This document shows positions 1 to 20,837 of a stretch of DNA of 64,000 nt, one piece after another. The notes under the pieces were generated by a model. It was not told the DNA's origin. It saw only the letters and a program-made list of their open reading frames with translations, and did not search any database. Origin of the DNA: Thermoleophilia bacterium (GTDB lineage Bacteria > Actinomycetota > Thermoleophilia > Gaiellales > F1-60-MAGs149); contig JBAXNN010000008.1 in the NCBI GenBank assembly GCA_037133755.1, positions 30,245 through 94,244 of the forward strand, read 5' to 3'. A program made the translations under genes and the position numbers. The first letter of the stretch is position 1. Every line of letters begins with the position of its first letter.

Positions 1-595
1 GCGCGGCGAGCATCGGGCAGTTCGAGTCGATCGTGTGGTGCGGCTCGAGCTGCTCGCCCGGCGAGCGCAGCTCGTCGCCCGTGGGGATCACCGCGACGCG
101 CGGGCGGCGACGCACCTCGACAGTCGTGTGACCGGACGCGGCGAGCAGGCCGACATCGAAAGGCGAGAGCGCGTGGCCCGACTGCAAGAGGATCTCCCCC
201 ACCGGCACGTCCTCGCCGGCGGGTCGCACATCGGCACCCGCCTCGACGGTAACCGCAACCTCCGCGCTAGCGCCGTCGATCGAGACCTGCTCGCGCCGCA
301 CGACCGCATCGAAGCCCTCGGGGATAGGCGCGCCCGTGTCGACCGGTGCGAAGTCACTTCCGGCAATCAGCACCGGCGCACTGGCGGTGTCGGCGGCACG
401 GACGGCGATGCCGTCCATGGCGGCAACACGCACCGCTGGAACTGCGCGGACAGCCTCAACGGGGGCAGCGAGTACGCGACCCGCAGCATCGGCGATCGCG
501 ACCGGTTCAGCTGCGAGCGGCGTGAGCCACCCGGCCTCGGCCAGTGCAGCGAGCCAGCGGGCACGCGCCTCACGCGGTGTCGGCTCGGCGCTCAC
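1..595 (-). CDS. moeA: Molybdopterin molybdenumtransferase MoeA, 5' part (gene runs off the left edge)
   Basis: Not in the ORF track because it is open at the window edge. Manual minus-strand translation from GTG 595..593 gives VSAEPTPREARARWLAALAEAGWLTPLAAEPVAIADAAGRVLAAPVEAVRAVPAVRVAAMDGIAVRAAD..VDTGAPIPEGFDAVVRREQV..VRPAGEDVPVGEILLQSGHALSPFDVGLLAASGHTTVEVRRRPRVAVIPTGDELRSPGE. The blocks MDGxAV, TGAPxPxGxDAVV, GED and TGDEL are MoeA hallmarks. The GTG overlaps the fdhD TGA (GTGA). Confidence 0.8.
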   Translation of the reverse strand, partial: MSAEPTPREARARWLAALAEAGWLTPLAAEPVAIADAAGRVLAAPVEAVRAVPAVRVAAMDGIAVRAADTASAPVLIAGSDFAPVDTGAPIPEGFDAVVRREQVSIDGASAEVAVTVEAGADVRPAGEDVPVGEILLQSGHALSPFDVGLLAASGHTTVEVRRRPRVAVIPTGDELRSPGEQLEPHHTIDSNCPMLAA

Positions 596-1452
596 GCCTG
601 GCCGACGTCAATCCGCTCGGTGTGCGCGTAGACGTTGCAGCGATCGTCGCGGAGAAAGCCCACGAGCGTGACGCCGAGGCGCTTGGCGGCATCGACGGCA
701 ATACTCGACGGCGCGCCGACTGCCGCCAAGATCGGAATGCCAGCGACGGCAGCCTTCTGCACGAGCTCGAACCCGGCGCGGCCCGACACGAGCGCGACGT
801 AGCCGTTGAGAGGTGTCTCGCCCTGCATCAGCCGTGCGCCGATCGCCTTATCCATCGCGTTGTGCCGACCGATGTCCTCGCGCAACTCGACGAGCTTGCC
901 ATCGGGCGTGAAGAGCCCCGTGGCGTGGATGCCGCCCGTACGGTCGAACTGGCGCTGCTTGGCACGCAGGGTCTCCGGCAACTCGAGCAGCGTCTCGAAC
1001 GCGACAACCGGGCCGTCGGGGATCACGCGGCACGCCACCTCGATCATGTCGATCGATGCCTTGCCGCACACGCCGCAGCTCGACGACGCGAACATATTGC
1101 GCTGCAGCCCAGCCGCATCAAACGGCTTGCGCAGCCGCACGCTGAGCACGTTGTACTGCTGCGACGCGTCCTCGACGTCCTCGCAGTAGCGGATCTCGGC
1201 GATCTCGTGGTTGTCGGCAACGAGGCCCTCGGTCAGCAGGAAGCCCGCCGCGAGCTCGAAGTCGGCGCCCGGCGTGCGCATCGTCACTGCGACCTGCGTG
1301 AAGGCCTCCCCCGGTCCGCCCACGCGGATCTCGAGCGGCTCTTCACCCGCCACGCGATCGCGCTTCTCGACCGGCTTCTCCCCACGGGCTAGCCGGAGCA
1401 CGCCCACCTCGGCGGTGGGCCCGGCGAGCGGTGGTCGCTCGGCGGTGCCCAT
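592..1452 (-). CDS. fdhD: Formate dehydrogenase accessory sulfurtransferase FdhD
   Basis: ORF 592..1611 trimmed to ATG 1452 (MGTAERPP..), 4 nt after the upstream stop. FdhD blocks present: SSSCGVCGKASID cysteine pair, GGIHATGLF, GRHNAMDKAIG, VSGRAGFELVQKAAVAGIP. Confidence 0.88.
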   Translation of the reverse strand: MGTAERPPLAGPTAEVGVLRLARGEKPVEKRDRVAGEEPLEIRVGGPGEAFTQVAVTMRTPGADFELAAGFLLTEGLVADNHEIAEIRYCEDVEDASQQYNVLSVRLRKPFDAAGLQRNMFASSSCGVCGKASIDMIEVACRVIPDGPVVAFETLLELPETLRAKQRQFDRTGGIHATGLFTPDGKLVELREDIGRHNAMDKAIGARLMQGETPLNGYVALVSGRAGFELVQKAAVAGIPILAAVGAPSSIAVDAAKRLGVTLVGFLRDDRCNVYAHTERIDVGQA

Positions 1453-1456
1453 CGCG

Positions 1457-2391
1457 CTACTTCTTGGCTCCGTCGCGCGCCTGAGCGTGCTGGAAGCCGA
1501 AGCGGCCCTTGATGCAGAGGTTGCCGTGCGTGATCGAGTGCTCCGGCGGGCTCGTGACCTTGACGATCGAGTTGTCCTGCACGTGCAGCTCGAGGTTGCA
1601 GCCGACGCCACAGTAGGTGCAGATCGTCGTGGTGACCGTCTGCTCCTCCTCGCGCCACTCGCCCTCCTCGCGGAGGTCGTGCTCGCTCTTGAACATCAGG
1701 GCGCCCGTCGGGCAGACCTGGATGCAGTTGCCGCAGTAGACGCAGGCCGACTCGGGCAGCGGGACGACGAACTCGGTCGAGATGCGCGCATCGAAGCCAC
1801 GGCCCGCGACGCTGATCGCGAACGTGTTCTGCCACTGCTCGCCGCACGCGTCGACGCACTTGTAACAGAGGATGCACTTCGAGTAATCGCGCATGTAGAG
1901 CTCGTTGTCGATCTTCTTGCCCTGGTAGACCGTCGCGGCCAACTGGCCATCGGTCTCGGCGCTGTGGCCGGCGCGATGGTGGTCACGATGGGTGTCCGGC
2001 GGGGCCTGCGGACCGAACTTCTCGGGCCGGGCGTCGTACGCCGCGAGGTACTCGGGCGCGACCGACGTCGTCGAAAGGTCCACGCTCGAGGCAAGCAGCT
2101 CGAGCACCATGCGGCGGCTCGCGCGGACGCGCTCGGAGTTCGTGTGGACCTTCATGCCGGGCTCGGCCTTGCGCGAGCACGAGGGCTGCAGGACGCGGGC
2201 GCCCTCGACCTCGACCACGCAGACGCGGCAGGCGTTCTTGGGCGCAAGCGTCTCGCCGAAGCACAGGGTCGGCGTCTCGGTGCCGACCTTGGTGATCGCG
2301 TCGAGCAGCGTCTGGCCCTCGAAGACCTTGACGGCCTGGCCGTCGATCTCGAGCTCGACCATCCGCTTGGGGGTCATCATCACGGGATCGC

Positions 2392-2395
<4 letters not shown>
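1457..2395 (-). CDS. NuoG-like Fe-S subunit of formate dehydrogenase; ends with the molybdopterin-oxidoreductase FS0 4Fe-4S domain (N-terminal fragment of a split FdhA/FdsA)
   Basis: Part of ORF 1457..2620. The likely start is GTG 2395, which has GGAGG 6 nt upstream and overlaps the upstream TGA; ATG 2380 is the alternative. Motifs: 2Fe-2S region TLCFGETLAPKNACRVCVVEVEG..QPSC; ferredoxin motifs CILCYKCVDAC and CVYCGNCIQVCP; then TICTYCGVGCNLELHV..GNLCIKGRFGFQH, followed by a stop. Confidence 0.82.
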
Positions 2396-4250
<1,855 letters not shown>

Positions 4251-4251
<1 letters not shown>

Positions 4252-6209
4252 TAGTCGCCCGCCACCAGTTCGCGGTCGGCGTAGGCGGTCATGGTCTGCT
4301 CGCCCTTGGCGAGCTTCTCGACCTTGATCGCGCAGGCCTTGAACTCGGCGGTGCCACTCTTCTCGTCGACGGCGTCGATCGTCAGCTGGTTCACGTCGAC
4401 CTGGTCGGGGAAGTGGAACGTCATGAAGCCAAGACCAGGACGCAGCCGGACGTCGGTGCGGACCGGCGACTCGACGGTGCCACGGCGCGAGGAGACGCGC
4501 ACGATCTCGCCGTCTTCGAGGTTCATGCGCTCCATGTCCTCGGGGCACAGCTCGAGGAACTCGCCGGCGTGCAGCGGGCTCGTGAACTTCTCGGTCTGGA
4601 CGCCCGTGTTGTACGACTCGAGGCGACGACCCGTGGTGAGACGGATCGGGAACTCGGCGTCGGTCGCCTCGAACGGCGGGCGATCGTGCACCGGCACGAA
4701 CGGCGCGAGCATGCCCTGCACCGGGTCGGCCCAGAGACGCTCGTGCAGACGCGGCGAGCCAGCGTGGCCCTCCTCGGGGCACGGCCATTGGATGCCACCG
4801 AGCTCCTCGAGCCGCGCGTACGACATGCCGGTGTGCATCGGCGAGAGCGAGCGCAGCTCGTTCCAGATGTCCTCGCTGGTCGGGTAGTTCCAATCGAAGC
4901 CCAGGCGCTTGGCCAGCTCGGTGAGGATCCACTGGTCGTCCATGGCCTCGCCCGGCGGGTCGAGCGCCTTGCGCACGCGCTGGACGCGACGCTCGGAGTT
5001 CGTGACGGTGCCGTCGGACTCGCACCACGAGGCAGAGCCCGGCAGGATCACGTCGGCGAGCTCGGCCGTCTTCGTCGCGAAGATGTCCTGCACGACAAGG
5101 AAGTTGAGGCCGCCCAGCAGGGTGCGGATGCGGTTCGAATCGGCGTCGGACTGGGCCGGGTTCTCGCCGATGATGTAGCAGTACTTCAGCTCCCCGGTCT
5201 CCATGCCGTGGAACATCTGCGTGAGGTGCCAGCCGTAGCGATCACGGATCGGCACGCCGTAGGCCTGCGAGAACTTCTCGCGTGCCTCGTGGTTGTTCTC
5301 GATGTCCTGGAAGCCCGGCAGGCGATTCGGGATCGCGCCCATGTCGCCGCCGCCCTGCACGTTGTTCTGGCCGCGCAGCGGGTTGAGGCCCGAGCCGTAG
5401 CGCCCGACGTGGCCGCAGAGCAGGGCCAGGGAGATCAGGCTGAGGACGTTGTCGACGCCCGTGTGGTGCTCGGTGATACCGAGCGTCCACGAGATCATCG
5501 CGCGGTCGGCCTTGGCGTAGGCGTGGGCGACCTCGCGGATCGCCTCGGCCGGTACGCCGGTCAGCTCCTCGGCACGCTCGAGCGTGTACTCGGCGACGTG
5601 CTTTCGATAGTTCTCGAAGTTCTCCGTGGAGTGCTCGATGAAGGCCCTGTTGGCGAGACCCGCTTGGATGATCTCGTTGGCCATGGCGTTGGCGAGGGCG
5701 ATGTCCGAGCCGACGTTATTGCCGAGCCAGATGTCGGCCCACTGGGCGGTCTCAGAACGGCGGGGATCGACGACGAAGAGCCGCGCACCGTTGTGAATGC
5801 CCTTGAGGACGTGATGGAAGAAAATCGGATGTGCGTTGCGGGCGTTCGAGCCCCACAGCAGGATGACGTCGGTGTCGTGATACTCCTCATACGAAGAGGT
5901 TCCGCCACCCGCTCCAAAGACAGTCGCCAGACCGACGACGCTAGGAGCGTGTCAAGTTCTGTTACATGAGTCGACGTTGTTCGACCCCATCACCTGACGG
6001 GTGAACTTGCCGGCGAGGTAGTTGACCTCGTTGGAGGCCTTCGAGCACGAGAACATGCCGTAGCTCTTCGATGTGTCGAGGTCGCGCGCAGGCGCGAGGC
6101 CGGCGGCGGCGTAATCGAGCGCCTCCTCCCAGCTGGCGGGTCGGAACTCGCCGTTCTCCTTGATCCATGGGTGCGTCAGGCGCCCCTTGGGCAGTTTCGT
6201 CGTCGTCAT
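4251..6209 (-). CDS. fdhA: Formate dehydrogenase catalytic (molybdopterin) subunit, selenocysteine-containing; lacks its own FS0 domain
   Basis: ORFs 5952..6527 and 4251..5684 join in frame across TGA 5954..5952: ..NNVDSCNRT-U-HAPSVVGLATVFGAGGGTSSYEEY... ATG 6209 (MTTTKLPKGRLTHPWIKENGEFRPASWEEALDY) has GGAGG 9 nt upstream. Typical MopB and C-terminal barrel blocks are present: NPLRGQNNVQGGGDMG, IGENPAQSDAD, LTTGRRLESYNTG. Confidence 0.88.
5911..5954 (-). ncRNA. Sec UGA codon plus bacterial SECIS-like stem-loop inside the fdhA mRNA
   Basis: The mRNA reads UGA CAC GCU CCU AGC GUCGUC GGUCU GGCGAC UGUCUUU GGAGC. The upper 6-bp stem (5939..5923) closes a GGUCU loop that starts 12 nt after UGA. 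The lower stem pairs GCUCC with GGAGC. Register and loop resemble the E. coli fdhF SECIS core. Confidence 0.7.
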
Positions 6210-6294
6210 CGCAGCAGTCCTCCAGCGGATATGCGTGAACACCCCAATGATGACGGGGCACGAGCGCCGGCGAAACATGGCATTTCCACTCGTG

Positions 6295-6313
6295 TGATAG
6301 GCAACGGCTATCA
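6295..6313. promoter_or_regulatory. LysR-type T-N11-A palindromic box in the fdhA/lysR divergent region
   Basis: TGATAG-gcaacgg-CTATCA is a perfect 6-bp inverted repeat containing T-N11-A. It lies 8 nt upstream of the LysR ATG and about 86 nt upstream of the fdhA ATG. Confidence 0.5.
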
Positions 6314-6320
6314 TGGCGTC

Positions 6321-7202
6321 ATGCAGTTGCGGCAGTTGGAATACGTCATAGCGCTCGCTCGCGAACGGCACTTCGGCCGCGCTGCTGCTGCATGTCATGT
6401 CTCGCAGCCGTCCCTGAGCGGCGGCATTCGGGCCCTCGAGGCGGAATTGGGTGTGCCTATCGTGGTGCGCGGCCGCACCTACGGCGGCCTGACACCCGAG
6501 GGCGAGCGTGTGGTTGCCTGGGCGCACCGCCTGCTGGCCGACGCCGACGGCCTGCGCGAAGACCTCGCCGCCATGCGCGGCGCGCTTACCGGTCGCCTGC
6601 GCCTCGGCGCGATCCCGACCGCGCTGCCGATCGCCAGCGCGCTATCGGCGACCGTCGCCGCGCTCCACCCCGGCCTGTCGATCACCGTGCTCTCGCTCGC
6701 CAGCCGCGAGATCGAACGCCAACTGCTCGAGTTCGAGATCGATGCCGGCATCACGTACCTCGACAACGAGCCGCTGCACGGTGTGCGCGGTGTCCCGGTC
6801 GCGCAGGAGCGCTACGTCCTCTACGCCCACCAGGGCAGTCCCGAGGCGAGCCGGCCATCGCTGACCTGGCGCGAGGCCGCAGAGCTGCCGCTCGTGCTGC
6901 TCACGCAGACGATGCAGAACCGCCGCATCATCGACGCGGCCTTCACGACCGCTGGCTCCTCCCCCGCCCCACGCATCGAGTCGGACGACATCGTGCCGCT
7001 CTGGGAGCACGTGGCCGATGGCCGCTGGTACACGATCGGGCCGAGCTCGTGGCTCGACGGCGGCGCGCTGCCCGACGAGATCGTCGCCGTGCCACTGACC
7101 GACCCAACGGTGGAGCAACGCATCGGCGTCGTCGTCCCCGACCGCGACCCATTGCCGACGATCACGCGCGCGCTGCTCGACGCAGCCCGCGGCGACGACT
7201 AG
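6321..7202 (+). CDS. LysR-family transcriptional regulator
   Basis: ORF 6171..7202 trimmed to ATG 6321: MQLRQLEYVIALARERHFGRAAAACHVSQPSLSGGIRALEAELG (LysR wHTH) followed by a substrate-binding domain. Divergent from the fdh operon. Confidence 0.9.
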   Translation: MQLRQLEYVIALARERHFGRAAAACHVSQPSLSGGIRALEAELGVPIVVRGRTYGGLTPEGERVVAWAHRLLADADGLREDLAAMRGALTGRLRLGAIPTALPIASALSATVAALHPGLSITVLSLASREIERQLLEFEIDAGITYLDNEPLHGVRGVPVAQERYVLYAHQGSPEASRPSLTWREAAELPLVLLTQTMQNRRIIDAAFTTAGSSPAPRIESDDIVPLWEHVADGRWYTIGPSSWLDGGALPDEIVAVPLTDPTVEQRIGVVVPDRDPLPTITRALLDAARGDD

Positions 7203-7224
7203 CTCTCCACGCGCCCACCCTTCG

Positions 7225-9114
7225 TCAGGGCGTGAGTTCGATGCGGCGGCCGATCGCCGTCAAGAGCTCGGGTGGCACGCCGAAGAACTCGGGACGCCCC
7301 TGGGAGAAGCGATGCATGGCGGCGAACAGATACAGCGGGACCGAGCGCAGTCCCCTGCCCTTGACGGCCACGGAGTCGCGCCCGATGAGGTAATCGGCCA
7401 CCTGTGGATCGAATGGCTCGCCCAGCGCGAGTCGCCCCAGTGCCGCAGGCACGTCAGGTTGCTCGGTGAACCCGAAGCGAAGCGCAATGCGCTGCACGCC
7501 GTGCTGCAGCACAACAACCTCGGCGCGCTCCGCCTCCGGAACCACGGGAACCTCGGTTGTGCTGATCGAGACGATCAGCGTGCGCTCGTAGATGCCTCCG
7601 GTGCGATCGGCCAGTTTCATCAGCGTCCCAGGCGCCACCTCCGGCTCACGCACGAGGAAGACACCCGTACCACGCAACCGGCCGCGGGCCGATGGCGGCA
7701 ACGTGGCCAGGAATCCGTCCAGCGGCACGGCGTGAGCCGCCGCCTCGGCCAGCAAGCGATCACGCCCCGTCGACCACGAGCGGACGACGAAGAAGATCAC
7801 CACGGCGATGGAGACGGTGAACCACGCGCCGTGCACGATCTTGATCACGTTCGACGAGAAGAACAGGATGTCGACGACACCGAGCGGTACGTAGACGAGC
7901 GCCACGACCAGCGGCGACCAACGCCAGACCGTGCGAGCCACGATCGCCGCGAGGATCGTCGTGCAGATCAGGGTGCCAGTGACCGTCAGGCCGTACGCCA
8001 CGACGAGACGGGATGAGGACTGGAAGATCAGCACCGTCGCCGCCACGCCGATGAACATGATCAGCGTGATCACGGGGATGTTGATCTGCCCGCGGATCGT
8101 CTTCGAGGTGTGGACGATCGGCAGGCGCGGCAGAAATCCCATCTGCATCGCCTGCTGCGTCAGCGAGTACATGCCCGTGATGACCGCCTGCGACGCGATC
8201 ACCGTCGCCAGCGTGGCGAGCACGACCATCGGCAGCATCAGTCCGTCGGGAACCAGCGCGTAGAAGGGGTTGTTGATCTTACGCGGATCGTCCAGAACCA
8301 ATGCGCCCTGTCCGAGATAACACAGCACCAGTGCTGGGAAGACGATCACCGACCACGAGATCGTGATGGGTGGACGCCCGAAGTGCCCCATGTCGGCGTA
8401 CAACGCCTCGACACCGGTGATCGCGAGGGTGACCGCACCAAGCGCGAGGAACGTCATTGTCGGCTCGCGCAGCGCGAGGTCGATCGCATAGGTGGGACTG
8501 ATCGCCCGCAGCACCGAGGGGTTCTGCACGATCTGCACGATGCCGAGTGCCGAGATCACGGTGAACCAGAGAAGCATGATCGGCCCGAACACGCGCCCGA
8601 TGCTCCCTGTGCCCCAGCGCTGCATCATGAAGAGGAGCGTCAGGATGACCAACGCGATCTCGGTCTCGTACTCCTGCAATCCGCTATTGATGAGCGATGC
8701 TCCCTCGATCGCCGACAGCACCGACACGCTCGGCGTGAGTACCGCGTCGGCGGCGAAGAGCGCGATCGCGAGCATGCTGAGGAAGATGACCAGCGCCCGG
8801 CGTCGCCCCCGGACGAGAGGCTCAACGAGGGCGCCCAGCGCCAAGGTGCCGCCCTCGCCGTTGTTCGATGCCCGCATCACAACGATCACGTACTTGATGG
8901 TGACCACGATGATGAGCGCCCAGACGAACAGTGAGAGCGCACCAAGCACGGATGGCTCGTCGACGGTGAGGCCGATATCGGGGCCGAACGCGGCCTGGAA
9001 GGCGTAGAGCGGGCTGGTGCCGATGTCGCCGTAAATGACACCGAGCGCGGCGAGGACAAGCAGCGCGACCGCGCCGCGTCGCGGCGTGCCCTGGTGACGA
9101 TTCGCATGCGGCAT
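7225..9114 (-). CDS. kup: KUP/HAK/KT-family potassium uptake transporter
   Basis: 629 aa and polytopic. N-terminal signature GVIYGDIGTSPLYAF; GEGGTLAL; a C-terminal cytosolic domain. Confidence 0.9.
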   Translation of the reverse strand: MPHANRHQGTPRRGAVALLVLAALGVIYGDIGTSPLYAFQAAFGPDIGLTVDEPSVLGALSLFVWALIIVVTIKYVIVVMRASNNGEGGTLALGALVEPLVRGRRRALVIFLSMLAIALFAADAVLTPSVSVLSAIEGASLINSGLQEYETEIALVILTLLFMMQRWGTGSIGRVFGPIMLLWFTVISALGIVQIVQNPSVLRAISPTYAIDLALREPTMTFLALGAVTLAITGVEALYADMGHFGRPPITISWSVIVFPALVLCYLGQGALVLDDPRKINNPFYALVPDGLMLPMVVLATLATVIASQAVITGMYSLTQQAMQMGFLPRLPIVHTSKTIRGQINIPVITLIMFIGVAATVLIFQSSSRLVVAYGLTVTGTLICTTILAAIVARTVWRWSPLVVALVYVPLGVVDILFFSSNVIKIVHGAWFTVSIAVVIFFVVRSWSTGRDRLLAEAAAHAVPLDGFLATLPPSARGRLRGTGVFLVREPEVAPGTLMKLADRTGGIYERTLIVSISTTEVPVVPEAERAEVVVLQHGVQRIALRFGFTEQPDVPAALGRLALGEPFDPQVADYLIGRDSVAVKGRGLRSVPLYLFAAMHRFSQGRPEFFGVPPELLTAIGRRIELTP

Positions 9115-9160
9115 CGCAGCCGTATCCTAGAACAAAGATTTCGTATTCAGCGGCACATCG

Positions 9161-11071
9161 TCAGATCTCGACGCGCGCGCCCATCGTGACCGTGTGATCC
9201 GGGGGCACGTGGAAGAAGTCCGTCGAGACCTGTGCGTGGCGATGGAGCAGCGCGAAGACGCGGCGCGGGAAGCCGATGAAGCCGCGGGACGTGACAGCAA
9301 CGGTGTCGCGGCCAACGAAGTACGACGTCGTCTCCGGGTCGATGTGGGGTCCGATCGCGCTCGCCTCGAGCGCGACGGGGACGTTCGGCGACTCGGCAAA
9401 GCCGAAGCGCAGGAACACGCGCCACAGGCCCGGGCTGATCTCCGTCGCCTCAGAGCGATTGGCATCGGTCGCGTACGGCGTGTCAAGCGTCTGCACGGTC
9501 AGCAGCACAGTCAGCTCGTGGATGCGGCCGAAGTTGCGGATCGTGGCGATCAGCGGGCGTGGCACATGGGTGGACGAGGCGACGAGGAACACGCCGGTGC
9601 CCTCCGTGCGCTTGTACTTGCCGGCCGCGACCTTCTCGGTGAAGTCATCGGCCGGCACGGCCTCGCGCGAGAGCGCGCGCATCATCGCCGTGCGTCCCGT
9701 CGACCACGACGAGATGATGATGAACAGGATTGTCGCGACGACCAGCGAGAACCACGCGCCGTGCGGGATCTTCGACATGTTGGCAGTGAAGAACGCGACG
9801 TCGACGATGCCGAGCGGTCCGAAGATCAGCACGATGCGCCACTTCGGCCAGTGCCAGAGGTGGAAGGCGACGATCACGGCGAGGACCGTGGTGCACACCA
9901 ACGTACCGGTGACGGCGAGACCATAGGCCGCCGCGAGGTGCTCGGAAGACTTGAAGATCAGGATCGTCGCAACCACCGCGAGGTACTGGAACAGCGTGAT
10001 GACGGGCATGAAGATCTGGCCGCGCACCGTCGCCGACGTCTGCAGCACCTTCATGCGCGGCAGCAGGCCGAGCTGCATCGCCTGGCGCGTCACGGAATAG
10101 GCGCCCGAGATGACGGCTTGGGACGCGATCACCGTGGCGAGCGTGGCGAGGATCACGACCGGAATCTCGATCCCACCCGGCACGAGGTGGTAGAAGGGAT
10201 TGTCGATCAGCTGCGGATTCTCGAGCAGCAGCGCGCCCTGACCGAGGTAGCAGAGCGTGAGACTCGGGAAGACGATCAGCAGCCACGACAGCGTGATCGG
10301 CGGGCGGCCGAAATGCCCCATGTCCGCGTACAGCGCCTCGGCACCGGTGATCGCGAGCGTGACCGCACTGAGCGCGCCGAACGACAGCAGCGGATGGGCG
10401 ACGATGAACTCGAAGGCGTAGATCGGCAGGATCGCGCGCACCACGGTCGGGTTCTCGCGGATGCCGTTGATGCCAATACCCGCGATGACGAGAAACCAGA
10501 CGAGCATGATCGGGCCGAACAGGCGGCCGACCTTCTCCGTGCCGAAGCGCTGGCCGAGGAAGAGCGTCGTCAGAATCACGAGCGCGATCACGATCGCATA
10601 CCGCTCGATCTCGGGAAACTTGAGGCCTGCGCCTTCGACAGCTGACAGCACCGAGATGCTCGGTGTCAGCACCGCGTCGCTCATGAAGAGCGAGACCGCG
10701 AGGATGCCGACGATGATCACCATCGTGCGCGTCTTGTTCTGCACGAAGCGCAGCGCGAGCGACTGAAGCGCCAGATCGCCGCCCTCCCCCTTGTTGTTGG
10801 CGCGCGTCACGATGATCACGTACTTGATCGTCACGACGATGATCAGTGCCCAGATGAACATCGAGAGGAGGCCGAGGATGTCCTGCTCGTTCGGCTTCAT
10901 GCCGAACGTCGAGCTGAAGGCCACCTGCATCGCGTAGAGCGGGCTCGTGCCGATGTCGCCGTAGATCACCCCGAGCGCGCCGAGCGCGAGGAGTGGCAGT
11001 GGCCCGTGCGGGACATGGCTGCCTCCGGAGGTGGCGTGGTTCGAATCGGACAATGCAGTGCGGCGTCGCAT
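9161..11071 (-). CDS. kup: KUP/HAK/KT-family potassium uptake transporter (tandem paralogue)
   Basis: ORF 9161..11110. The start is uncertain (ATG 11071 MRRRTALSD.. or 11110). Motifs GVIYGDIGTSPLYAM and GEGGDLAL. Colinear with the downstream kup. Confidence 0.88.
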   Translation of the reverse strand: MRRRTALSDSNHATSGGSHVPHGPLPLLALGALGVIYGDIGTSPLYAMQVAFSSTFGMKPNEQDILGLLSMFIWALIIVVTIKYVIIVTRANNKGEGGDLALQSLALRFVQNKTRTMVIIVGILAVSLFMSDAVLTPSISVLSAVEGAGLKFPEIERYAIVIALVILTTLFLGQRFGTEKVGRLFGPIMLVWFLVIAGIGINGIRENPTVVRAILPIYAFEFIVAHPLLSFGALSAVTLAITGAEALYADMGHFGRPPITLSWLLIVFPSLTLCYLGQGALLLENPQLIDNPFYHLVPGGIEIPVVILATLATVIASQAVISGAYSVTRQAMQLGLLPRMKVLQTSATVRGQIFMPVITLFQYLAVVATILIFKSSEHLAAAYGLAVTGTLVCTTVLAVIVAFHLWHWPKWRIVLIFGPLGIVDVAFFTANMSKIPHGAWFSLVVATILFIIISSWSTGRTAMMRALSREAVPADDFTEKVAAGKYKRTEGTGVFLVASSTHVPRPLIATIRNFGRIHELTVLLTVQTLDTPYATDANRSEATEISPGLWRVFLRFGFAESPNVPVALEASAIGPHIDPETTSYFVGRDTVAVTSRGFIGFPRRVFALLHRHAQVSTDFFHVPPDHTVTMGARVEI

Positions 11072-11153
11072 ACGGCCGGCGCCGGCTGAGTATACCGCCG
11101 CTGCGAACAAACCCCTGCCATAGTTCAGCGATGGCGTTGAAAGGATTCACCCA

Positions 11154-12605
11154 GTGTTCGTGAACAAGACCCCGCGTTTCGAGCCCCTCTCCGAGGACGC
11201 ACTCGACACCATCGACCGAGGCTGGAAGCGCCTCGTCTCCGAGGTCGGGATCAAGTTCGTGCACGAGCCGTCGCTCGAGCTCTTTCGCCGCGAGGGCCAG
11301 CGCGTCGAGGACGAGGTGGTCTTCTTCGACCCCGAGTGGATTCTTGAGAAGATCAAGACGACGCCGACCGAGTTCCGCCTGATCTCGCGCAACCCGGACA
11401 AGAACGTGCAGTTCGGCCGCGACAACATGGTCTTCTGCACCGGCCAGTCGATGCCGTTCTGCGACGACGGCGTCACGGGCCGCCGCGACGGCACGCTCGC
11501 CGATGCCGTCCAGCTGCTGCGCGCCGCACAGATGACGCCCGAGATCGACACGCCCGGCTATCCGATCATCGAGGTCAACGACAAGCCGATCGATTCGCGC
11601 CATCTCGACCTGCAGCTCGCGATGTACGAGAACACCGACCTCCCCGTCGGCGCTGCGCAGATCCACCTCAACGGCGTGATCGACTCGATCGCGATGGCCG
11701 AGATGGTGCTCGGCGGCCCCGAGGTGCTCGAGAAGGACGCCGCGGTCTTCGGCACGATCAACGCGAACTCGCCGCTGATGTTCGATACGCGCATGCTCGA
11801 GTCGCTGTGGATGCTCGCCGAGCGCAATCAGATCGTCAACATCACGCCGTTCATCATGATGGGCGCGATGGGTCCGGTCGCCGTGCCGGCCGCACTCGCA
11901 CAGCAGACCGCCGAGTCGCTGGCGGGCATTGCGCTCGTCCAGGCGATCCGCCCGGGCTGCCCCGCGATCATGGGCTCGTTCGTCTCGAACACCGACATGA
12001 AGTCCGGCTCGCCCGGCTTCGGCGGCCCCGAGGCAGCACTTGGCATCCTCGCCACCGGCCAGATCGCGCGTCGCCACAACGTCCTGTGGCGCGCCGGCGG
12101 TGGTGGCCTCAACGCCAGCCCGGCCGTGGATGGACAGTCGGCCTTCGAGTCGCTCAACACGATGGCCCAGTCGTTTCTCGCCGGCGCCAACCTCCAGCTG
12201 CACACCACCGGCTGGCTCGAGGGCGGCCTCGTGCACTCGTTCGCCAAGGTCGCGATGGACACCGAGATGCTGCGCAACCTGATCGCGGAGTTCACGCCGA
12301 TCGAATGGACCGACGAGAACCTCGCCTTCGAGGCGCATGCCGAGGTTGGCCACGCCGGCCACTTCTTCGGTGCCGCGCACACGCTGGAGAACTTCCGCGA
12401 CTGCTTCTATCGCCCGACGGTCTGGACGACAGACAACTACTCGGCGTGGACGAAGAAGGGCGGCAAGAACGCCACCGAGCGCGCACTCGACGAGTTCAAT
12501 CGTTTGCAGGAGGCATGGGCAGAGAACCCGCCCACGCTCGACCCCGATCTTCACGCCGAGCTGAAGGCGTACACGGATCGGCGTCGCACCGAGCTCGGCG
12601 ACTAA
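11154..12605 (+). CDS. MttB-superfamily (COG5598) methyltransferase, non-pyrrolysine type (quaternary/tertiary amine methyltransferase candidate)
   Basis: 483 aa from a GTG start with no in-frame TAG. The length and blocks (NANSPLMFD, ITPFIMMGAMGPVAVPAALAQ, GSPGFGGPEAA, GANLQLHTTGWLEGGL, GHFFGAAHTLENF) fit my recollection of trimethylamine methyltransferase-family proteins. Confidence 0.75.
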   Translation: MFVNKTPRFEPLSEDALDTIDRGWKRLVSEVGIKFVHEPSLELFRREGQRVEDEVVFFDPEWILEKIKTTPTEFRLISRNPDKNVQFGRDNMVFCTGQSMPFCDDGVTGRRDGTLADAVQLLRAAQMTPEIDTPGYPIIEVNDKPIDSRHLDLQLAMYENTDLPVGAAQIHLNGVIDSIAMAEMVLGGPEVLEKDAAVFGTINANSPLMFDTRMLESLWMLAERNQIVNITPFIMMGAMGPVAVPAALAQQTAESLAGIALVQAIRPGCPAIMGSFVSNTDMKSGSPGFGGPEAALGILATGQIARRHNVLWRAGGGGLNASPAVDGQSAFESLNTMAQSFLAGANLQLHTTGWLEGGLVHSFAKVAMDTEMLRNLIAEFTPIEWTDENLAFEAHAEVGHAGHFFGAAHTLENFRDCFYRPTVWTTDNYSAWTKKGGKNATERALDEFNRLQEAWAENPPTLDPDLHAELKAYTDRRRTELGD

Positions 12606-12611
12606 CGCCTC

Positions 12612-13436
12612 ATGGTCGTCCTGTTCGGCTTGGTCACGGCCTTCTCGTGGGCGTTCGCCAACGTGTTCACGCAACAGGCGAGCCGGACCAAGACCAAGCC
12701 GGCGGTGATCATGTTCTGGGTCTTGATCGTGACGGCAGCAGTGGTGCTGCCCGTCGCACTGGTCGTCGATCGCCTCGAGGGCCCGTGGACCCCAGCCGGG
12801 TTGGGCTGGCCCATTCTCGCCGGCCTGCTCGCCACCGTCGGCTTCTTCCTGCTGCTGCGCGCGCTGACGAAGGGCAGCCTGAGCGTCGTCGCGCCGATCA
12901 TCGCCCTCGAGGGCGGTGTCGCGACGCTGCTGTCGATCGCGCTTGGTGAGCGCCCATCGGCCGTCCAGTACGTGTTGCTTGGCGTGGCGGTCGTCGGCGC
13001 CTTCCTCGTGGCGGTCGAGCCGGGCCGCCGCACGGCGGCTGGGGCTCCCGAAGCGGTACTCGCAGCGTTCGCCTACGCCGGCGTGCTGATCGCGCTCGGC
13101 CAGTCGAACCTGCCCGACCTGACCACCGTCGGCGTCACGCGAACCGTCAGCGTGCTCGCGATCCTGCCGGCGTTCCTCCTGGTACGCGAGCTGCCGAAGC
13201 GCACGAACGTCTACCCGATTCTCTGGTGCGGCCTGCTCGACGCGGTCGGCTTCGCCTTCTTCGCCTTTGCCGCGTCGATCGGTCCGCTCTCGGTCGCCTC
13301 GGTGACGGCCACGCAGTGGGGCACGGCCGCGGCGCTGATCGGCATCATCGGCATGCGCGAGCGGCTGTACACGAACCAGTACATCGGCATCGCGGTCACG
13401 CTCTTCGCAGTGACCGGGCTCGGGCTCTTGTCCTAG
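12612..13436 (+). CDS. EamA/DMT-family transporter
   Basis: 274 aa with about 10 hydrophobic helices in two EamA-like halves. Starts 6 nt after the mttB-like stop. Confidence 0.75.
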   Translation: MVVLFGLVTAFSWAFANVFTQQASRTKTKPAVIMFWVLIVTAAVVLPVALVVDRLEGPWTPAGLGWPILAGLLATVGFFLLLRALTKGSLSVVAPIIALEGGVATLLSIALGERPSAVQYVLLGVAVVGAFLVAVEPGRRTAAGAPEAVLAAFAYAGVLIALGQSNLPDLTTVGVTRTVSVLAILPAFLLVRELPKRTNVYPILWCGLLDAVGFAFFAFAASIGPLSVASVTATQWGTAAALIGIIGMRERLYTNQYIGIAVTLFAVTGLGLLS

Positions 13437-14185
13437 ACGCGACGCTGGAGCGCGGCGACCGAGGCGGTCGATAGCGGCTCGCGCGTGATGCCCGTCGTTC
13501 CGCCACGCGTGGCGAAGGCGGTGATGCGGCCGGCGCGCTCGCCGTGATGCGCGAGCAGGCGGTGACGGCGGATGTCGTGCACGAGGAAGTCGACGGTCGC
13601 GGCGAGGCCATCGACCACGGTGACGTCACCGGCCAGCTCGCGTACCTCATCGGCGTCGACGTACGCGCTCGGCGTGAGCAATAGGAGCACCGCTACCTCG
13701 GGCGCGTGCTTGCGGACGCGCATGAGCAGATCGCGGGCGGGATCGGTACCGCGCTCGATCAGCGTGACGCTACCGCCGCCGCGCAGCGTGCGGATCGCCT
13801 TGGCCAGCACCATCGTCTTGACCTCGTCGGACGAGAACACCGCGGCGATCGGGCGCCCCTTCGCCTCGGCCAGGGCCGCGCGCAGGCCGCACTCCAGTCC
13901 CCGTACGGAGATGCCCTCGAACTCGGGTCGCGCCTCGAAGGATGCGAAGCCGCCGGCGAGCAGCAGCGCCTTGGCGCCCTCATCGAGGAGCCCCGTCGCG
14001 AGATCGTGCACGCGCCGCGTCACCTGATCGGGCCGCCGGCCCGCGTACGGCGCGAACGCCTGGTCGGCGACGACGAGGATGTCCTCCTTCGGCAGTTGGG
14101 CGCGCAGGAGCTCGGCTCCGCGCACGCCCTCCCAGCCCTCGGCGACGACCCCGATCGAACCTGCCGGGTCGGCGCTCCAGGTCAC
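13433..14185 (-). CDS. Glutamate-racemase-like (Asp/Glu racemase fold) protein lacking both catalytic cysteines
   Basis: ORF 13433..14311 trimmed to GTG 14185, which overlaps the upstream TGA. SIGVVAEGWEGVRGAELLRAQLPKEDILVVADQAFAPYAGRRPDQV..AKALLLAGGFASFEA aligns by eye with MurI IGVxDSGVGGL..LP.E.IIYxGDTARxPYG..[12 protein letters not shown]. The CNTA motif is replaced by GGFA and GCTHYP by LTPSAY. Confidence 0.5.
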   Translation of the reverse strand: MTWSADPAGSIGVVAEGWEGVRGAELLRAQLPKEDILVVADQAFAPYAGRRPDQVTRRVHDLATGLLDEGAKALLLAGGFASFEARPEFEGISVRGLECGLRAALAEAKGRPIAAVFSSDEVKTMVLAKAIRTLRGGGSVTLIERGTDPARDLLMRVRKHAPEVAVLLLLTPSAYVDADEVRELAGDVTVVDGLAATVDFLVHDIRRHRLLAHHGERAGRITAFATRGGTTGITREPLSTASVAALQRRV

Positions 14186-15348
14186 GACCGCGGTCGCTTC
14201 TTCTCCGAGTCGTAGATTGGGAATGCAGCGGCCGTCGCCTCGGCGAGAGTCCCGTCGGGAAGCGCAACCTGTACACGCGTACCGGATGCGACGAGGTCTG
14301 CCTCGATGCACGCCATGCCGATCTGCAAATCGACGCTCGGCGAACGACCCGCCGACGGCGACAGCAACGTTCCGACATTCCGACCATCGACAAAGACCTC
14401 TGCCCCGTAATCCGGTGCCTCATCTCCGTCGACGACCAGCGTCGTGAGGCGGTGCGTGATGCCCGCGGCCAGCTCATCGACCAGCGCCTGCTTGCCAACG
14501 AAGTCACCCGTATCGAGACTGATGGTCCGATCCAGATTCATGTGGAACGGCGAAGTCTCGCCCACGAAATAGTCGTAGCCGATAAAGATCAGGCCCGACT
14601 CGATCCGCAGCGACTCAACCGCAGCCAGACCGTACGGACGGATTCCGTACGCTGCACCAGCCGCGAGCAGAGCCTCCCACAACATCTCGGCGCTGTCCTT
14701 CGGCACGTAGATCTCGTAGCCGAGCTCGCCCGAGTACCCCGTGCGAGCCAAGTAGCAGCCGGCAATACCCGCGACCGTGATCGGCTCCGTCGTGAAGCGG
14801 AAGTACTTGAGCGACGCGACCTCGAAGTCCGTGAGGCCATCGATCAGGTCACGCGACTTGGGACCCTGTACCTGGACGTGCGGCCACTCCTCGGTGCGAT
14901 CGAGGATTTCGACGTCGAAACCCTGCTGCGTCGAGACACGGCGAAAGTGATCGACGTCACTCGGCAGCGCGGTCACCACGAGGATGCCGGCACCCGTCTC
15001 ATCACCGGTGTTGAAGACCACACCGTCGCCGAGCATGCAGCCGTTCTCGTCGAGAAAGCACGAGTACCGGGCCTGTCCGACGGCAAGGTCAGACATGTCG
15101 TTGGCGAAGCAGAAGTCGACGGCCTTGATCGCGTCGTTGCCGCGGAAGATCCACTTCTGCAACGGCGACTCGTCCCAAACACCAACGGTCTCGCGAACCG
15201 CATGGTGCTCGGCAAGTGGATTGCCGAAGTCGGAGATCCAATCCCAGCCCTCCCACTCGGCAAAGGTGCCACCCTGACGACGCTGAATCGCGTCAAAGGC
15301 CGTCAACCGCAGGCCTTCAGCGCCGGCTGCGTTTTCCTGATCGCTCAT
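14182..15348 (-). CDS. GcvT-like aminomethyltransferase-family (folate-binding) protein
   Basis: Part of ORF 14182..16050. ATG 15348 overlaps the upstream TGA (ATGA). MSDQENAAGAEGLRLTAFDAIQRRQGGTFAEWEGWDW..ARTGYSGELGYEIYVP..YGLAAVESLRIESGL is typical of the GcvT/DmdA fold. Confidence 0.85.
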   Translation of the reverse strand: MSDQENAAGAEGLRLTAFDAIQRRQGGTFAEWEGWDWISDFGNPLAEHHAVRETVGVWDESPLQKWIFRGNDAIKAVDFCFANDMSDLAVGQARYSCFLDENGCMLGDGVVFNTGDETGAGILVVTALPSDVDHFRRVSTQQGFDVEILDRTEEWPHVQVQGPKSRDLIDGLTDFEVASLKYFRFTTEPITVAGIAGCYLARTGYSGELGYEIYVPKDSAEMLWEALLAAGAAYGIRPYGLAAVESLRIESGLIFIGYDYFVGETSPFHMNLDRTISLDTGDFVGKQALVDELAAGITHRLTTLVVDGDEAPDYGAEVFVDGRNVGTLLSPSAGRSPSVDLQIGMACIEADLVASGTRVQVALPDGTLAEATAAAFPIYDSEKKRPRS

Positions 15349-17342
15349 GACCGCGGTCTCCTCTTCTCGGGGTCGTAGATCGGGTACGTGTCGGTGTACG
15401 CCGGGACGAGACGGCCGTCGGGCAGCGCCACCTCGACGCGATTGCCCGGCTCGGCCAGCTCGGCCTCGATGCACGCCATGCCGATCAGGCGATCGACGCT
15501 CGGCGAGCGTCCCGCCGACGGCGACAGCAGCTTGCCGACACCGCGACCGTTGACGAAGACATCGGCGCCGTAGTCCGGCGCCTCGTTGCCCGCGACGACG
15601 AGCGTCGTGAGGCGATGCGTGATGCCCGCGGCCAGCTCGTCGACGAGCGCCTGCTTGCCGTTGAAGTCGCCCGTCTCCAGGTTGATCGTCCGGTCCAGGT
15701 TCATATGGAACGGCGAGGTCAGGCCCTGGAAGTAGTCGTAGCCGATGAAGATCAGGCCCGACTCGATGCGGAGCGACTCGACGGCGGCGAGGCCGTACTG
15801 ACGGATGCCGCGCGACGCGCCCTCGTTGAGGAGCTCCTGCCAGAGCGCTTCGGCGCCGGCCTTCGGCACGTAGATCTCGTAGCCGAGCTCGCCCGAGTAG
15901 CCAGTGCGGGCCAGGTAGCAGCCCGCGATGCCGCCGATCGTGATCGGCTCCGTCGTGAAGCGGAAGTACTTGAGCGAGTCGACGTCGAAGTCGGTCATCG
16001 CGCTGATCAGCTCGCGCGACTTCGGACCCTGCACCTGGATGTGCGGCCACTCCTCGGTGCGGTCGAGGATCTCGACGTCAAAGCCCTGCTGCTTCGAGAC
16101 GCGGCGGAACTGGTCCACGTCGCTCGGCAGTGCGGTCACCACGAGGATGCCGGCACCGGTCTCGTCGCCCGTGTTGAAGGCGACGCCGTCGCCGAGCATG
16201 CGACCGTACTCGTCGACGAAGCACGAGTAGCGGGCCTGGCCGACCTGCATCGAGGCCATGTCGTTGGCGAAGCAGTAGTCGACGGCCTTGAGCGCGTCGG
16301 GTCCGCGGAAGATCCACTTCTGCAGCGGTGACTCGTCCCAGATGCCGACGGTCTCGCGGACCGCGTGGTGCTCGTCGATCGGATCGCCGAAGTCAGAGAT
16401 CCAGTCCCAGCCCTCCCACTCGGCGAAGGTGCCGCCGTTGCGGCGCAGAATCGCGTCGAAGGCTGTCTTGCGCAGACCCTCGGTCGAGACCTGCGGGGCG
16501 GGCGCCTCGACGATCGCGATGCCGGCGGCCTCAGCGGGAGGTGAACCCTCCTGATCGGCGGCAGCGACCGGGGTGTCGACGGGGATGATCACGATCGGCG
16601 CCTGGCGCAGGTCCGGCGGCTGATGGCCCGGCGGCAGCACCTCGGACACGCCCAACAGAGCGCGCGCGGCGGCCGGATTCGGCAGCGTGCGGTACTCCTC
16701 GAGGCAGCGCATAGGCTCCTGGTCGAGGTTGCGGCGGATGCGGCGATAGCGGGCCTGCGCACCGGCACCGAGGCCCGGCGTCGAGAAGATCGCCTGCTCG
16801 ACGTACGACTCAATCACCTTGTTGCCGAGCAGCTTGACGTCGGCCTCGCGGGCCTTGCCCGTGAGCGGGTTGTACAGCACGACGCACTTGATGGTGTCGA
16901 GGAACGAGTTCCACGTCGACAGCACGACGGGACCACGGACGCGAATGCCTGTCTCGGGGATCGCGAGGTGCGTGATGCGGCGGTCATTGATCGTGTGGAT
17001 CAGCGACTCAGCGGTCGGCGACATGATGCTGACGAACTTGTGCATCGGCCACACGTCGAGCTGGTTCCAGTCGCCGGGCTCGCAATCGACGCCGATCATG
17101 TACGTGTCGGCGTAGCGGAAGAAGTTCGCATTGCCCCGCGTCTCGCGCAAGTGGTCGTAGAACAGCGTGTTCGTGCCGCCGATCAGGTTCGAGCAGCCAA
17201 CGGCGTCCATCGGCGTGCCCATCACCACGCAGAAGCGGTCGCCGTTCTTGTAGCCACCGGGCCAGAGGGTGTTCAGCGGAGCGGAAACGCCGTCGCGCTC
17301 GACGGAGAAGTCCTCGGAATTGAGTGCGTAGGACGAATGCAT
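15345..17342 (-). CDS. Fusion protein: unrecognised ~255-aa N-terminal domain, Pro/Ala linker, GcvT-like aminomethyltransferase domain
   Basis: 665 aa. Residues ~288-665 are colinear and highly similar to the downstream stand-alone GcvT-like protein. Residues 1-255 (MHSSYALNSEDFSVERDGVSAPLNTLWPGGYKNGDRFCVVMGTPMDAVGCSNLIGGTNTLFYDHLRETRGNANFFRYADTYMIGVDCEPGDW..) have no nucleotide-binding motif I recognise. Confidence 0.8.
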   Translation of the reverse strand: MHSSYALNSEDFSVERDGVSAPLNTLWPGGYKNGDRFCVVMGTPMDAVGCSNLIGGTNTLFYDHLRETRGNANFFRYADTYMIGVDCEPGDWNQLDVWPMHKFVSIMSPTAESLIHTINDRRITHLAIPETGIRVRGPVVLSTWNSFLDTIKCVVLYNPLTGKAREADVKLLGNKVIESYVEQAIFSTPGLGAGAQARYRRIRRNLDQEPMRCLEEYRTLPNPAAARALLGVSEVLPPGHQPPDLRQAPIVIIPVDTPVAAADQEGSPPAEAAGIAIVEAPAPQVSTEGLRKTAFDAILRRNGGTFAEWEGWDWISDFGDPIDEHHAVRETVGIWDESPLQKWIFRGPDALKAVDYCFANDMASMQVGQARYSCFVDEYGRMLGDGVAFNTGDETGAGILVVTALPSDVDQFRRVSKQQGFDVEILDRTEEWPHIQVQGPKSRELISAMTDFDVDSLKYFRFTTEPITIGGIAGCYLARTGYSGELGYEIYVPKAGAEALWQELLNEGASRGIRQYGLAAVESLRIESGLIFIGYDYFQGLTSPFHMNLDRTINLETGDFNGKQALVDELAAGITHRLTTLVVAGNEAPDYGADVFVNGRGVGKLLSPSAGRSPSVDRLIGMACIEAELAEPGNRVEVALPDGRLVPAYTDTYPIYDPEKRRPRS

Positions 17343-17384
17343 GAAGGGATCCTAGACCGAATCCGTCATCTCGTGCATGTGCGA

Positions 17385-18035: not shown

Positions 18036-18125
18036 CTCTCGTATCTTCGCGCGTCTACCCGGCGCGAGACTGGCGCAACCCCACATCAGGGGATCCAGAC
18101 CAGCTCGGCGATCAGCGTCGATTTG

Positions 18126-18153
18126 GACACCATGGGCCCGGGCCCATCGTGTC
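18126..18153. repeat. GC-rich palindromic repeat, family 1 (core ATGGGCCCGGGCCCAT)
   Basis: GACACcATGGGCCCGGGCCCATcGTGTC is a 28-nt palindrome with one mismatch. It is intergenic. Confidence 0.85.
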
Positions 18154-18315
18154 AGGAGTGCTGCGTGATCGTTCTGCGCGCTGCACGCGCGTTCCGATGC
18201 GTCCCGCGCCTGCCGCTCCGTCGCTGAACGCGCAACGCCTGTATTGACCGGTGAGGAATCGGCCTGAGTGTCCGAGTCTTCGGTCGCAATTGCGTGCGCG
18301 TTTCACCACAGATCA

Positions 18316-18349
18316 CCTGACACAGTGGGCCCGGGCCCATCGTGTCAGG
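18316..18349. repeat. GC-rich palindromic repeat, family 1, second copy
   Basis: CCTGACACagTGGGCCCGGGCCCAtcGTGTCAGG. The 26 nt TGGGCCCGGGCCCATCGTGTCAGGAG are identical to 18133..18158, 193 nt away. Confidence 0.85.
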
Positions 18350-18392
18350 AGAGCCAATGCAGCGGGCTGAAGCGGTGCCTGATGGCAGCGCG

Positions 18393-19541: not shown

Positions 19542-19545
19542 CGAT

Positions 19546-20781: not shown

Positions 20782-20837
20782 GCCGGAAAGGGTGCCATGA
20801 CTCGCGCCGCCGCGGGGCGCAGCGCGAAAGACCGGAC

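Follow-up and report, generated by a model that had tools for sequence, protein, structure and literature searches.

The subject of this study is fdhA, a predicted gene for the catalytic subunit of a formate dehydrogenase (FDH) with an in-frame UGA codon, which is located on the minus strand of a 64,000-nucleotide stretch of DNA from an uncultured Thermoleophilia bacterium (assembly GCA_037133755.1, contig JBAXNN010000008.1, positions 30,245 to 94,244), hereafter referred to as the window. The gene appears in the list of open reading frames (ORFs) as two separate entries on that strand, 5952..6527 and 4251..5684, which are spaced by 267 nt because no ATG, GTG or TTG is found in frame before 5684. 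An initial annotation, whose coordinates, sequences and peptide for these ORFs have all proven exact, had proposed that both belong to one gene in which the UGA is translated as selenocysteine (Sec) with the help of a downstream selenocysteine insertion sequence (SECIS). Upon translation, the frame extends from the ATG at 6209 to a TAG at 4253..4251 and encompasses 652 codons, with codon 86 as its sole internal stop. The features of the gene and of the hairpin following this codon are listed below, with SECIS positions numbered from the U of the UGA as position 1.

4251..6209, minus strand: fdhA coding sequence, predicted catalytic Mo/W-bis-pterin subunit of formate dehydrogenase; 652 codons, very probably with Sec at codon 86, stop TAG 4253..4251
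5952..5954, minus strand: in-frame TGA, very probably the selenocysteine codon for residue 86 (alignment with FdhH Sec140, TGA/Cys column in relatives, TGA kept in loci L087-L092)
6218..6223, minus strand: Shine-Dalgarno-like GGAGGA, 8 nt before the ATG at 6209, as read from the sequence
5910..5949, minus strand: whole predicted SECIS hairpin, positions 6-45 (minimum free energy (MFE) structure from RNAfold; match of covariance model R1 at 5904..5954; alignment to Rfam SECIS_3)
5934..5939, minus strand: 5' arm of the apical stem, GUCGUC, positions 16-21 (six pairs in 61 of 63 Sec-type and 0 of 17 Cys-type sequences)
5929..5933, minus strand: apical loop GGUCU, positions 22-26, holding the equivalents of G23 and U24 of the SelB contact in E. 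coli
5923..5928, minus strand: 3' arm of the apical stem, GGCGAC, positions 27-32 (RNAfold, covariation)
5944..5948, minus strand: 5' arm of the lower stem, GCUCC, positions 7-11 (paired in the MFE structure)
5911..5915, minus strand: 3' arm of the lower stem, GGAGC, positions 40-44 (paired in the MFE structure)

Results

A single frame for the catalytic subunit

For searches at the protein level, the stop at codon 86 was substituted by Cys. The resulting sequence matches the Pfam family PF00384 (Molybdopterin) over residues 10-435 with 223 bits, spanning the TGA without a break, and PF01568 (Molydop_binding) over residues 523-627 with 87 bits, and the proposed union of the two ORFs into one fdhA is thus supported by both the open frame and the continuous domain. 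Its score of 659.9 bits against the NCBIfam profile TIGR01591 (Fdh-alpha), obtained over profile positions 51-672, stays below the equivalog cutoff of 666.25, since positions 1-50 match instead the C-terminus of the protein encoded by the third gene of the operon. Formate dehydrogenases account for all of the nearest solved structures, namely FdhF of the T. kivui HDCR, a methanogen Fdh, E. coli FdhH and the NAD-linked enzymes of Methylobacterium and Rhodobacter. Pairwise alignment with FdhH, the product of fdhF of E. coli K-12 (38% identity over FdhH residues 52-689), superimposes its Sec140, His141 and Arg333 on U86, H87 and R279 of the window protein and thereby places the UGA at the homologous metal-ligand position of the active site, as had been recognized initially. 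The surrounding sequences, NNVDCCARV-U-HGPSVAGL in E. coli and NNVDSCNRT-U-HAPSVVGL in the window, share the motif NNVD.C.R.-U-H.PSV.GL. The predicted tryptic peptide across residue 86 is T-U-HAPSVVGLATVFGAGGGTSSYEEYHDTDVILLWGSNAR.

The G+C content at third codon positions (GC3) of fdhA amounts to 0.90, and the 21-codon stretch with the lowest value (0.43) begins at codon 81 and holds both ACT, both GGA, the sole AGA and the sole TCA codons of the gene. The coincidence of this minimum with the TGA and the hairpin therefore indicates a constraint at the nucleotide level that overrides codon bias in this region. The five codons preceding the UGA (5969..5955, minus strand; TCA TGT AAC AGA ACT) also tend to end on A or T, and an effect of this upstream context on recoding is possible. 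UGA is the commonest ordinary stop in the window, where it terminates 19 of 34 genes, and its translation at codon 86 would therefore require context-dependent recoding rather than a reassigned code. When the window was scanned for other coding frames interrupted by TGA, the only case detected concerned two adjacent genes that share a frame by chance (48688..48690).

Codon 86 in related loci

Our comparison with relatives comprised 80 related loci, taken from one genome per species, 79 of which could be scored at the column of codon 86. This column contains TGA in 62 and TGT or TGC in 17 of these other species, with no other codon or stop being observed, and it thus displays the choice between Sec and Cys that the initial annotation had envisaged for orthologues. 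Cys forms of fdhA are found in Streptomyces, Nonomuraea, Nocardiopsis and Amycolatopsis, plus a few distant lineages. Among the best 120 protein matches, 100 are N-terminally truncated within about 10 residues after the codon-86 site, typically starting with V/M-FGAGGG, and the 20 full-length proteins all carry a Cys at this site. In public protein sets, as well as in the loci L082 and L087-L092, gene callers record the family as an 82-86-residue 'Molybdopterin' fragment and a second fragment of 477-558 residues, with the false start of the latter determined by the chance position of the next ATG or GTG.

If this automatic annotation of nearly all relatives, in which the second piece often starts at a GTG within ..ATV-FGAGGG.., was taken at face value, the locus would encode two distinct chains, namely an N-terminal peptide of 85 residues and a C-terminal protein whose translation is started downstream. 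We consider this arrangement extremely unlikely, since the respective codon of the window is GTC and thus not a start, and since the first in-frame start, ATG 5684, is located 89 codons past the UGA and would delete conserved residues including His87. Moreover, the break would occur at a metal-ligand position within one domain, and the Cys-type homologues are single chains.

The TGA of the window differs by one base from a Cys codon, and the sequence originates from a metagenome-assembled genome (MAG), which could both be invoked in favour of an original TGC or TGT that was altered by an error of sequencing or assembly. However, the identical TGA, along with the hairpin, is kept in six independent assemblies of closer relatives from six different samples, whose proteins are 74-96% identical (L087-L092; GCA_964588635.1, ERZ925110, SRR11536955, ERZ27280294, ERZ27280309 and ERZ25039600), the TGA recurs in 62 other species, and Cys-type genes are devoid of the hairpin that is found in the window gene. 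A miscall, which the initial annotation had named as a concern, can thus be regarded as having a negligible probability.

Relative to three relatives of about 95% nucleotide identity, codon differences across the whole fdhA number 74-80 synonymous versus 17 non-synonymous, with seven synonymous and no non-synonymous ones within the 85 codons that precede the UGA. The sole change within the hairpin of the same relatives is found at an unpaired position, and relatives at 81% and 74% protein identity have kept both TGA and hairpin. The counts of codon differences thus imply that both pieces of fdhA are under protein-level selection as one gene. They also bear on the question of whether a nonsense mutation or a recent loss of the Sec trait might have left a dead fdhA with a fossil SECIS. 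Formate dehydrogenase pseudogenes that have retained their SECIS are reported in some mycobacteria (PMC13449736), and such decay would account for two pieces that are treated as separate genes by gene callers in a window where, as described below, no Sec machinery was found. A pseudogene is nevertheless very unlikely in light of the strong purifying selection that acts both before and after the stop, the presence of the same TGA in 62 other species, an fdhA that is free of frameshifts or further stops, a hairpin that stays intact despite an opposing codon bias and an intact downstream operon including fdhD and moeA.

FdhA proteins of 60-67% identity to that of the window (L001-L060) were encountered in MAGs labelled as Spirochaetia, Chloroflexia, Acidobacteriota, Planctomycetota, Gemmatimonadota, Verrucomicrobiia, Eremiobacterota and as a Micrarchaeaceae archaeon. 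This wide spread across phyla points to extensive horizontal transfer of the operon, to binning errors, or to both.

A hairpin in SECIS register

The RNA following the UGA reads CAC GCU CCU AGC GUC GUC GGU CUG GCG ACU GUC UUU GGA GCG. Its MFE structure contains both stems that had been named initially, GUCGUC/GGCGAC (5939..5934 with 5928..5923) and GCUCC/GGAGC (5948..5944 with 5915..5911). The apical stem consists of six base pairs closing the GGUCU loop and begins 12 nt past the UGA, with G22 and G23 of the loop located 19-20 nt past the A of the UGA. These properties agree with the general rule for bacterial SECIS elements, a stem of 6-8 base pairs whose loop contains a conserved G some 20 nt past the UGA (PMC4605307), and the hairpin contains G23 and U24, which together with U17 constitute the key bases of the E. 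coli element, where the upper stem-loop is located 11 nt from the UGA (PMC8659212).

The core of E. coli fdhF, which the initial annotation had quoted, was confirmed in NC_000913.3 (UGA CAC GGC CCA UCG GUU GCA GGU CUG CAC), and so was the claimed register, with GGU CUG found at the identical codon offset of +7 and +8 in both sequences. The asserted likeness to the E. coli SECIS thus holds for the register and for the GGUCU loop with its G23/U24, as it does for a lower helix that starts few nucleotides after the UGA (PMC8659212). It does not extend to the stem, which is GUUGCA/..GCAC in E. coli and GUCGUC/GGCGAC in the window, or to the bulged U17, which is predicted to be paired in the latter.

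Conservation and covariation of the hairpin

For the comparison of the hairpin, 63 Sec-type sequences containing a TGA were contrasted with 17 Cys-type fdhA sequences. All six apical pairs form in 61 of the former and in none of the latter, the GGTCT loop is found in 62/63 compared to 4/17, and both features are complete in 60/63 versus 0/17 cases. G22 and G23 are invariant within the Sec-type set, U24 is present in 62 of its members and all 63 have a C directly after the UGA. The Gly codon of the loop is GGT in 62/63 sequences, although the usual Gly codon of fdhA is GGC (43/57). Compensatory changes in the apical stem occur at synonymous sites, as is illustrated for pair 18-30, which connects the third base of a Val codon with the third base of an Ala codon and which is found as CG (45), GC (14), UA (2) or GU (1) and is never unpaired. 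The covariation in the Sec set exceeds that of 500 out of 500 shuffles and of every slid register, whereas it remains at background in the Cys set. The stem sequence GUUGCC/GGCAAC occurs in the relatives L059 and L069. The same stem presumably also characterizes the fdhA SECIS of the Firmicute Moorella thermoacetica, an element used in SelB-RNA crystal structures (1WSU, 2UWM), whose sequence we take to be GUUGCC-GGUCU-GGCAAC, with a continuous stem of six base pairs and no bulged U.

A covariance model termed R1, which was built from 58 other Sec-type sequences with the window excluded, matches the window at 5904..5954 with 74.4 bits and an E-value of about 5e-16. This is its sole match, and a second SECIS was thus not found by R1 in the 64 kb. 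On homologous Cys sites the model obtains 19.5-40.4 bits, and it locates the genuine SECIS of E. coli fdhF at its correct position with 20.2 bits.

The lower stem GCUCC/GGAGC, which the initial annotation had described as a possible pairing, is real in the window sequence, but its comparative support is modest even in the near clade. There, four of its five pairs are fixed by codon positions 1-2, and the free pair 9-42 forms in 63% of the sequences compared to 40% expected (p about 0.001). In distant relatives the lower stem is not conserved.

In most of the near relatives of Sec type, codon 100 (5913..5911, minus strand), 14 positions after the Sec codon, specifies Ala (FGAGG), and Cys-type proteins have Ser (FGSGG) there. 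The Ala codon GCN provides positions 43-44 of the lower stem, and pair 8-43 forms in 44 of 46 Sec sequences and in 0 of 17 Cys sequences. This split could be an RNA constraint that shapes the protein or merely reflect lineage.

A simple pattern scan flags the apical hairpin (5923..5939, minus strand) and the following UGUCUUUGG as terminator-like, and the structure might in this case serve as intrinsic terminator or attenuator instead of a SECIS. Still, the T-rich tail probably represents no more than the Val-Phe-Gly codons and is less T-rich in relatives, and the hairpin resides inside a conserved coding region, at SECIS distance from the UGA and only in genes bearing a TGA, which leaves next to no probability for such a role.

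Observations opposing the assignment, and the search for Sec machinery

Several observations weigh against the assignment of the hairpin as SECIS and of the UGA as Sec codon. The folding energy of the hairpin, which is embedded in a G+C-rich sequence (68% G+C), is unexceptional, with a z of -0.9 and 33 of 200 shuffles folding equally well in RNAfold. It is thus uninformative, and the case therefore rests on comparison. U17, an important bulged base in E. coli, occurs in 63/63 sequences, in all of which it is predicted to be paired with A31 or G31, a property that counts against identity with the E. coli element but not against a bacterial SECIS, whose definition (PMC4605307) needs no bulge. 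The Rfam model SECIS_3 (RF01989), whose consensus UGA CaC Ggc CCa ACG GUg GCc AGU CUg GCc represents an fdhA-type SECIS, aligns with the window along the entire length of the model, superimposing the two UGAs as well as the two loops, but does so at a permissive threshold with 16.6 bits compared to a gathering score of 63, and at its gathering threshold, tRNA-Lys is all that Rfam detects in the window. The six relatives tested against RF01989 likewise stay below the threshold, including those that are adjoined by a tRNA-Sec, and Rfam SECIS models did not rescue the split annotations of the relatives tested. This miss is thus a limit of model coverage, with the curated model not reaching the clade of the window.

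Finally, neither tRNA-Sec nor selA, selB or selD were found in the 64-kb window by ARAGORN, Rfam, Pfam searches of about 40 ORFs and six-frame tblastn with E. coli SelA, SelB and SelD, and the only tRNA gene of the window is specific for Lys. The approximately 5 kb past its left edge, which are covered by contig L081, contain moeA and two more genes but no sel genes and no tRNA, and sel genes are equally not found nearby in the flanks of the closer relatives L087, L090 and L092.

By contrast, in a Thermoleophilaceae MAG (L018), selA, selB and selD are located immediately upstream of fdhD and fdhA, and a tRNA-Sec also flanks this orthologous operon. The respective genes of this and two further MAGs are:

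L018, Thermoleophilaceae MAG, 5443..9175 and 15071..15163: Sec toolkit of selA, selB, selD and tRNA-Sec flanking the fdh operon
L015, Chloroflexia MAG, 4363..8179 and 6942..7040: Sec toolkit, all four genes flanking the fdh operon
L020, Geodermatophilaceae MAG, 9775..9868: tRNA-Sec about 130 nt upstream of fdhA

The assignment of tRNA-Sec near fdhA in these three loci is in agreement between ARAGORN and the Rfam family RF01852 (60.6-77.9 bits). The class Thermoleophilia thus has the Sec trait, and selA, selB, selC and selD would be located elsewhere in the genome from which the window is derived.

The same loci are relevant for the question of whether the UGA might be recoded as a residue other than Sec, either as Cys by a SelB-dependent selC*-type tRNA-Cys(UCA) or as Trp, Cys or Arg by near-cognate readthrough at a leaky UGA-C. 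Translation of Sec codons as Cys by a selC* tRNA-Cys(UCA) is known from other phyla (PMC5389517), the UGA is followed by C in 63/63 sequences, and the identity of the inserted residue is not readable from sequence alone. Yet selC* is not reported in Actinobacteria (PMC5389517), the orthologous operon of the Thermoleophilaceae MAG is flanked by a bona fide tRNA-Sec along with selA, selB and selD, and the conservation of the SECIS is a prediction of SelB-dependent decoding, whereas passive readthrough would not need a hairpin. We thus deem the insertion of another residue highly improbable.

An operon with a split alpha subunit

fdhA is succeeded by four genes with overlapping stops and starts, which encode a NuoE-NuoF fusion, a NuoG-like Fe-S protein, FdhD and MoeA, and a divergent regulator precedes the operon:

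2392..4251, minus strand: nuoE-nuoF fusion, predicted NAD(H)/FMN module with 2Fe-2S and 4Fe-4S clusters (PF01257, PF01512, PF10531, PF10589; TIGR01959 with 471 bits)
1457..2395, minus strand: NuoG-like Fe-S subunit with a predicted FS0 4Fe-4S domain as its C-terminus (PF13510, Fer4 families, PF04879)
592..1452, minus strand: fdhD, predicted sulfurtransferase needed for formate dehydrogenase maturation (NF001943 with 314.3 bits at a cutoff of 269; PF02634)
1..595, minus strand: 5' part of moeA (molybdopterin molybdenumtransferase), an open frame that runs off the left edge
6321..7202, plus strand: divergent LysR-type regulator (PF00126, PF03466), syntenic in L087, L090 and L092

The GTG start of the nuoE-nuoF gene overlaps the stop of fdhA, and the same gene of 619 residues is called on L081 and L087; a full MoeA of 390 residues is called after an identical fdhD on L081. 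As judged from these sequences, the operon carries the module set of NAD-linked formate dehydrogenases (NuoE, NuoF, NuoG-like and FdhD).

FdhA begins at position 51 of TIGR01591 and is without counterparts of Cys8, Cys11, Cys15, Cys42 and Lys44, the residues of the FS0 cluster in FdhH. Residues 257-308 of the NuoG-like protein match positions 1-52 of the same profile and contain the motif CTYCGVGC..NLCIKG in their translation. The catalytic subunit is thus split, with the enzyme as a whole predicted to have the FS0 domain by virtue of the third gene. The name FdhA, as given initially, is consequently appropriate for the catalytic Mo/W-pterin part but does not cover a 4Fe-4S domain of its own. 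The order of Mo-subunit, NuoE-NuoF and NuoG-like protein is kept in about 55 related loci from many phyla, in Sec- and Cys-type alike. In a clade of 41-45% identity, the NuoG-like part precedes the Mo domain as an in-frame fusion.

The region 7225..20961 of the window, which is located upstream of the LysR gene, encodes two tandem KUP potassium transporters, an MttB-family methyltransferase whose gene is without in-frame TAG, an EamA exporter, a 668-residue protein with GcvT domains and FAD amine oxidases, and its synteny is kept in L087 and L090. This gene set suggests that methylated amines or glycine betaine are broken down, a process that would supply the dehydrogenase with C1 units.

Discussion

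The described properties of the locus allow us to conclude with high confidence that the two ORFs are one fdhA, in which the UGA of codon 86 is decoded as Sec by means of a downstream SECIS through the standard bacterial insertion process. The frame is open on both sides of the UGA, which aligns with the Sec of FdhH and alternates with Cys in relatives, and it is followed by a hairpin in conserved register, which covaries and which is absent from Cys-type genes. SelB binding and Sec insertion at this codon would follow the systems of E. coli and Moorella. By this analogy, SelB, loaded with GTP as well as Sec-tRNA(Sec), would bind the GGUCU loop through its C-terminal winged-helix domains and would bring the tRNA into the ribosomal A site that holds the UGA, where it would compete with release factor 2. 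The predicted role of the resulting Sec86 is that of a ligand to Mo or W at the catalytic centre of an NAD-linked formate dehydrogenase.

The context of this active site differs from that of well-studied homologues. E. coli FdhH contains a 4Fe-4S domain of its own and operates within formate hydrogenlyase and not with an NADH module. A closer relationship in this respect is found with FdsGBA of Rhodobacter capsulatus (6TG9/6TGA) and Cupriavidus necator and with FoDH1 of Methylobacterium (7E5Z), whose catalytic domains are homologous (E-values of 4e-125 to 5e-131) and which share the NuoE-, NuoF- and NuoG-like partner modules and FdhD. These enzymes have a Cys ligand, and their NuoG-like Fe-S domains and FS0 are fused to the N-terminus of the alpha subunit. 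In the window, by contrast, the predicted ligand is Sec, the alpha subunit is split into a Mo part in the first and an Fe-S part in the third gene, and NuoE and NuoF are fused. A brief literature check, including a large review from 2026, retrieved no description of a split alpha subunit, which is too thin a basis for a claim of novelty. There is only a slim chance that this organization, with the Mo/Sec part first, a NuoE-NuoF fusion and FS0 provided in trans by the NuoG-like subunit, represents an undescribed architectural class of soil formate dehydrogenases. Separately, and with an equally slim chance, the decoding itself might be non-canonical, by a SelB-dependent tRNA-Cys(UCA) or by a SelB with a novel mode of recognizing a bulge-less hairpin.

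With respect to the standard decoding as Sec that we favour, the fdhA of the window is ordinary in kind and leaves the knowledge of the mechanism of Sec insertion unchanged. FdhA is the most widespread bacterial selenoprotein and present in 89% of surveyed Sec-using bacteria (PMC1794560). Sec-containing formate dehydrogenases with a SECIS are already documented in Actinomycetota, where their annotation often fails since UGA is a common stop, and FDH is the single selenoprotein in many mycobacterial genomes (PMC13449736). The mycobacterial genes resemble the case described here in their origin from a high-G+C actinobacterial lineage, in UGA being the commonest stop and in an annotation that routinely fails; they differ in belonging to Actinomycetes instead of Thermoleophilia and in being annotated as fdhA/fdoG-type, and the likeness concerns their description (PMC13449736).

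The value of the finding lies foremost in annotation, since the window gene and at least 100 close relatives are filed either in two pieces or under the name of a 'molybdopterin oxidoreductase' that is truncated at its N-terminus. The contrast between Sec- and Cys-type genes, with complete hairpins in 60/63 of the former and 0/17 of the latter, would offer a helpful training set for bacterial SECIS detectors, given that the entire clade is missed by the Rfam model. Collectively, our study extends the documented use of Sec to an uncultured lineage of the Thermoleophilia, and, as a consequence of the fragmented records, a selenium-dependent formate dehydrogenase with a wide distribution among soil Thermoleophilia and many other phyla escapes function-based surveys.

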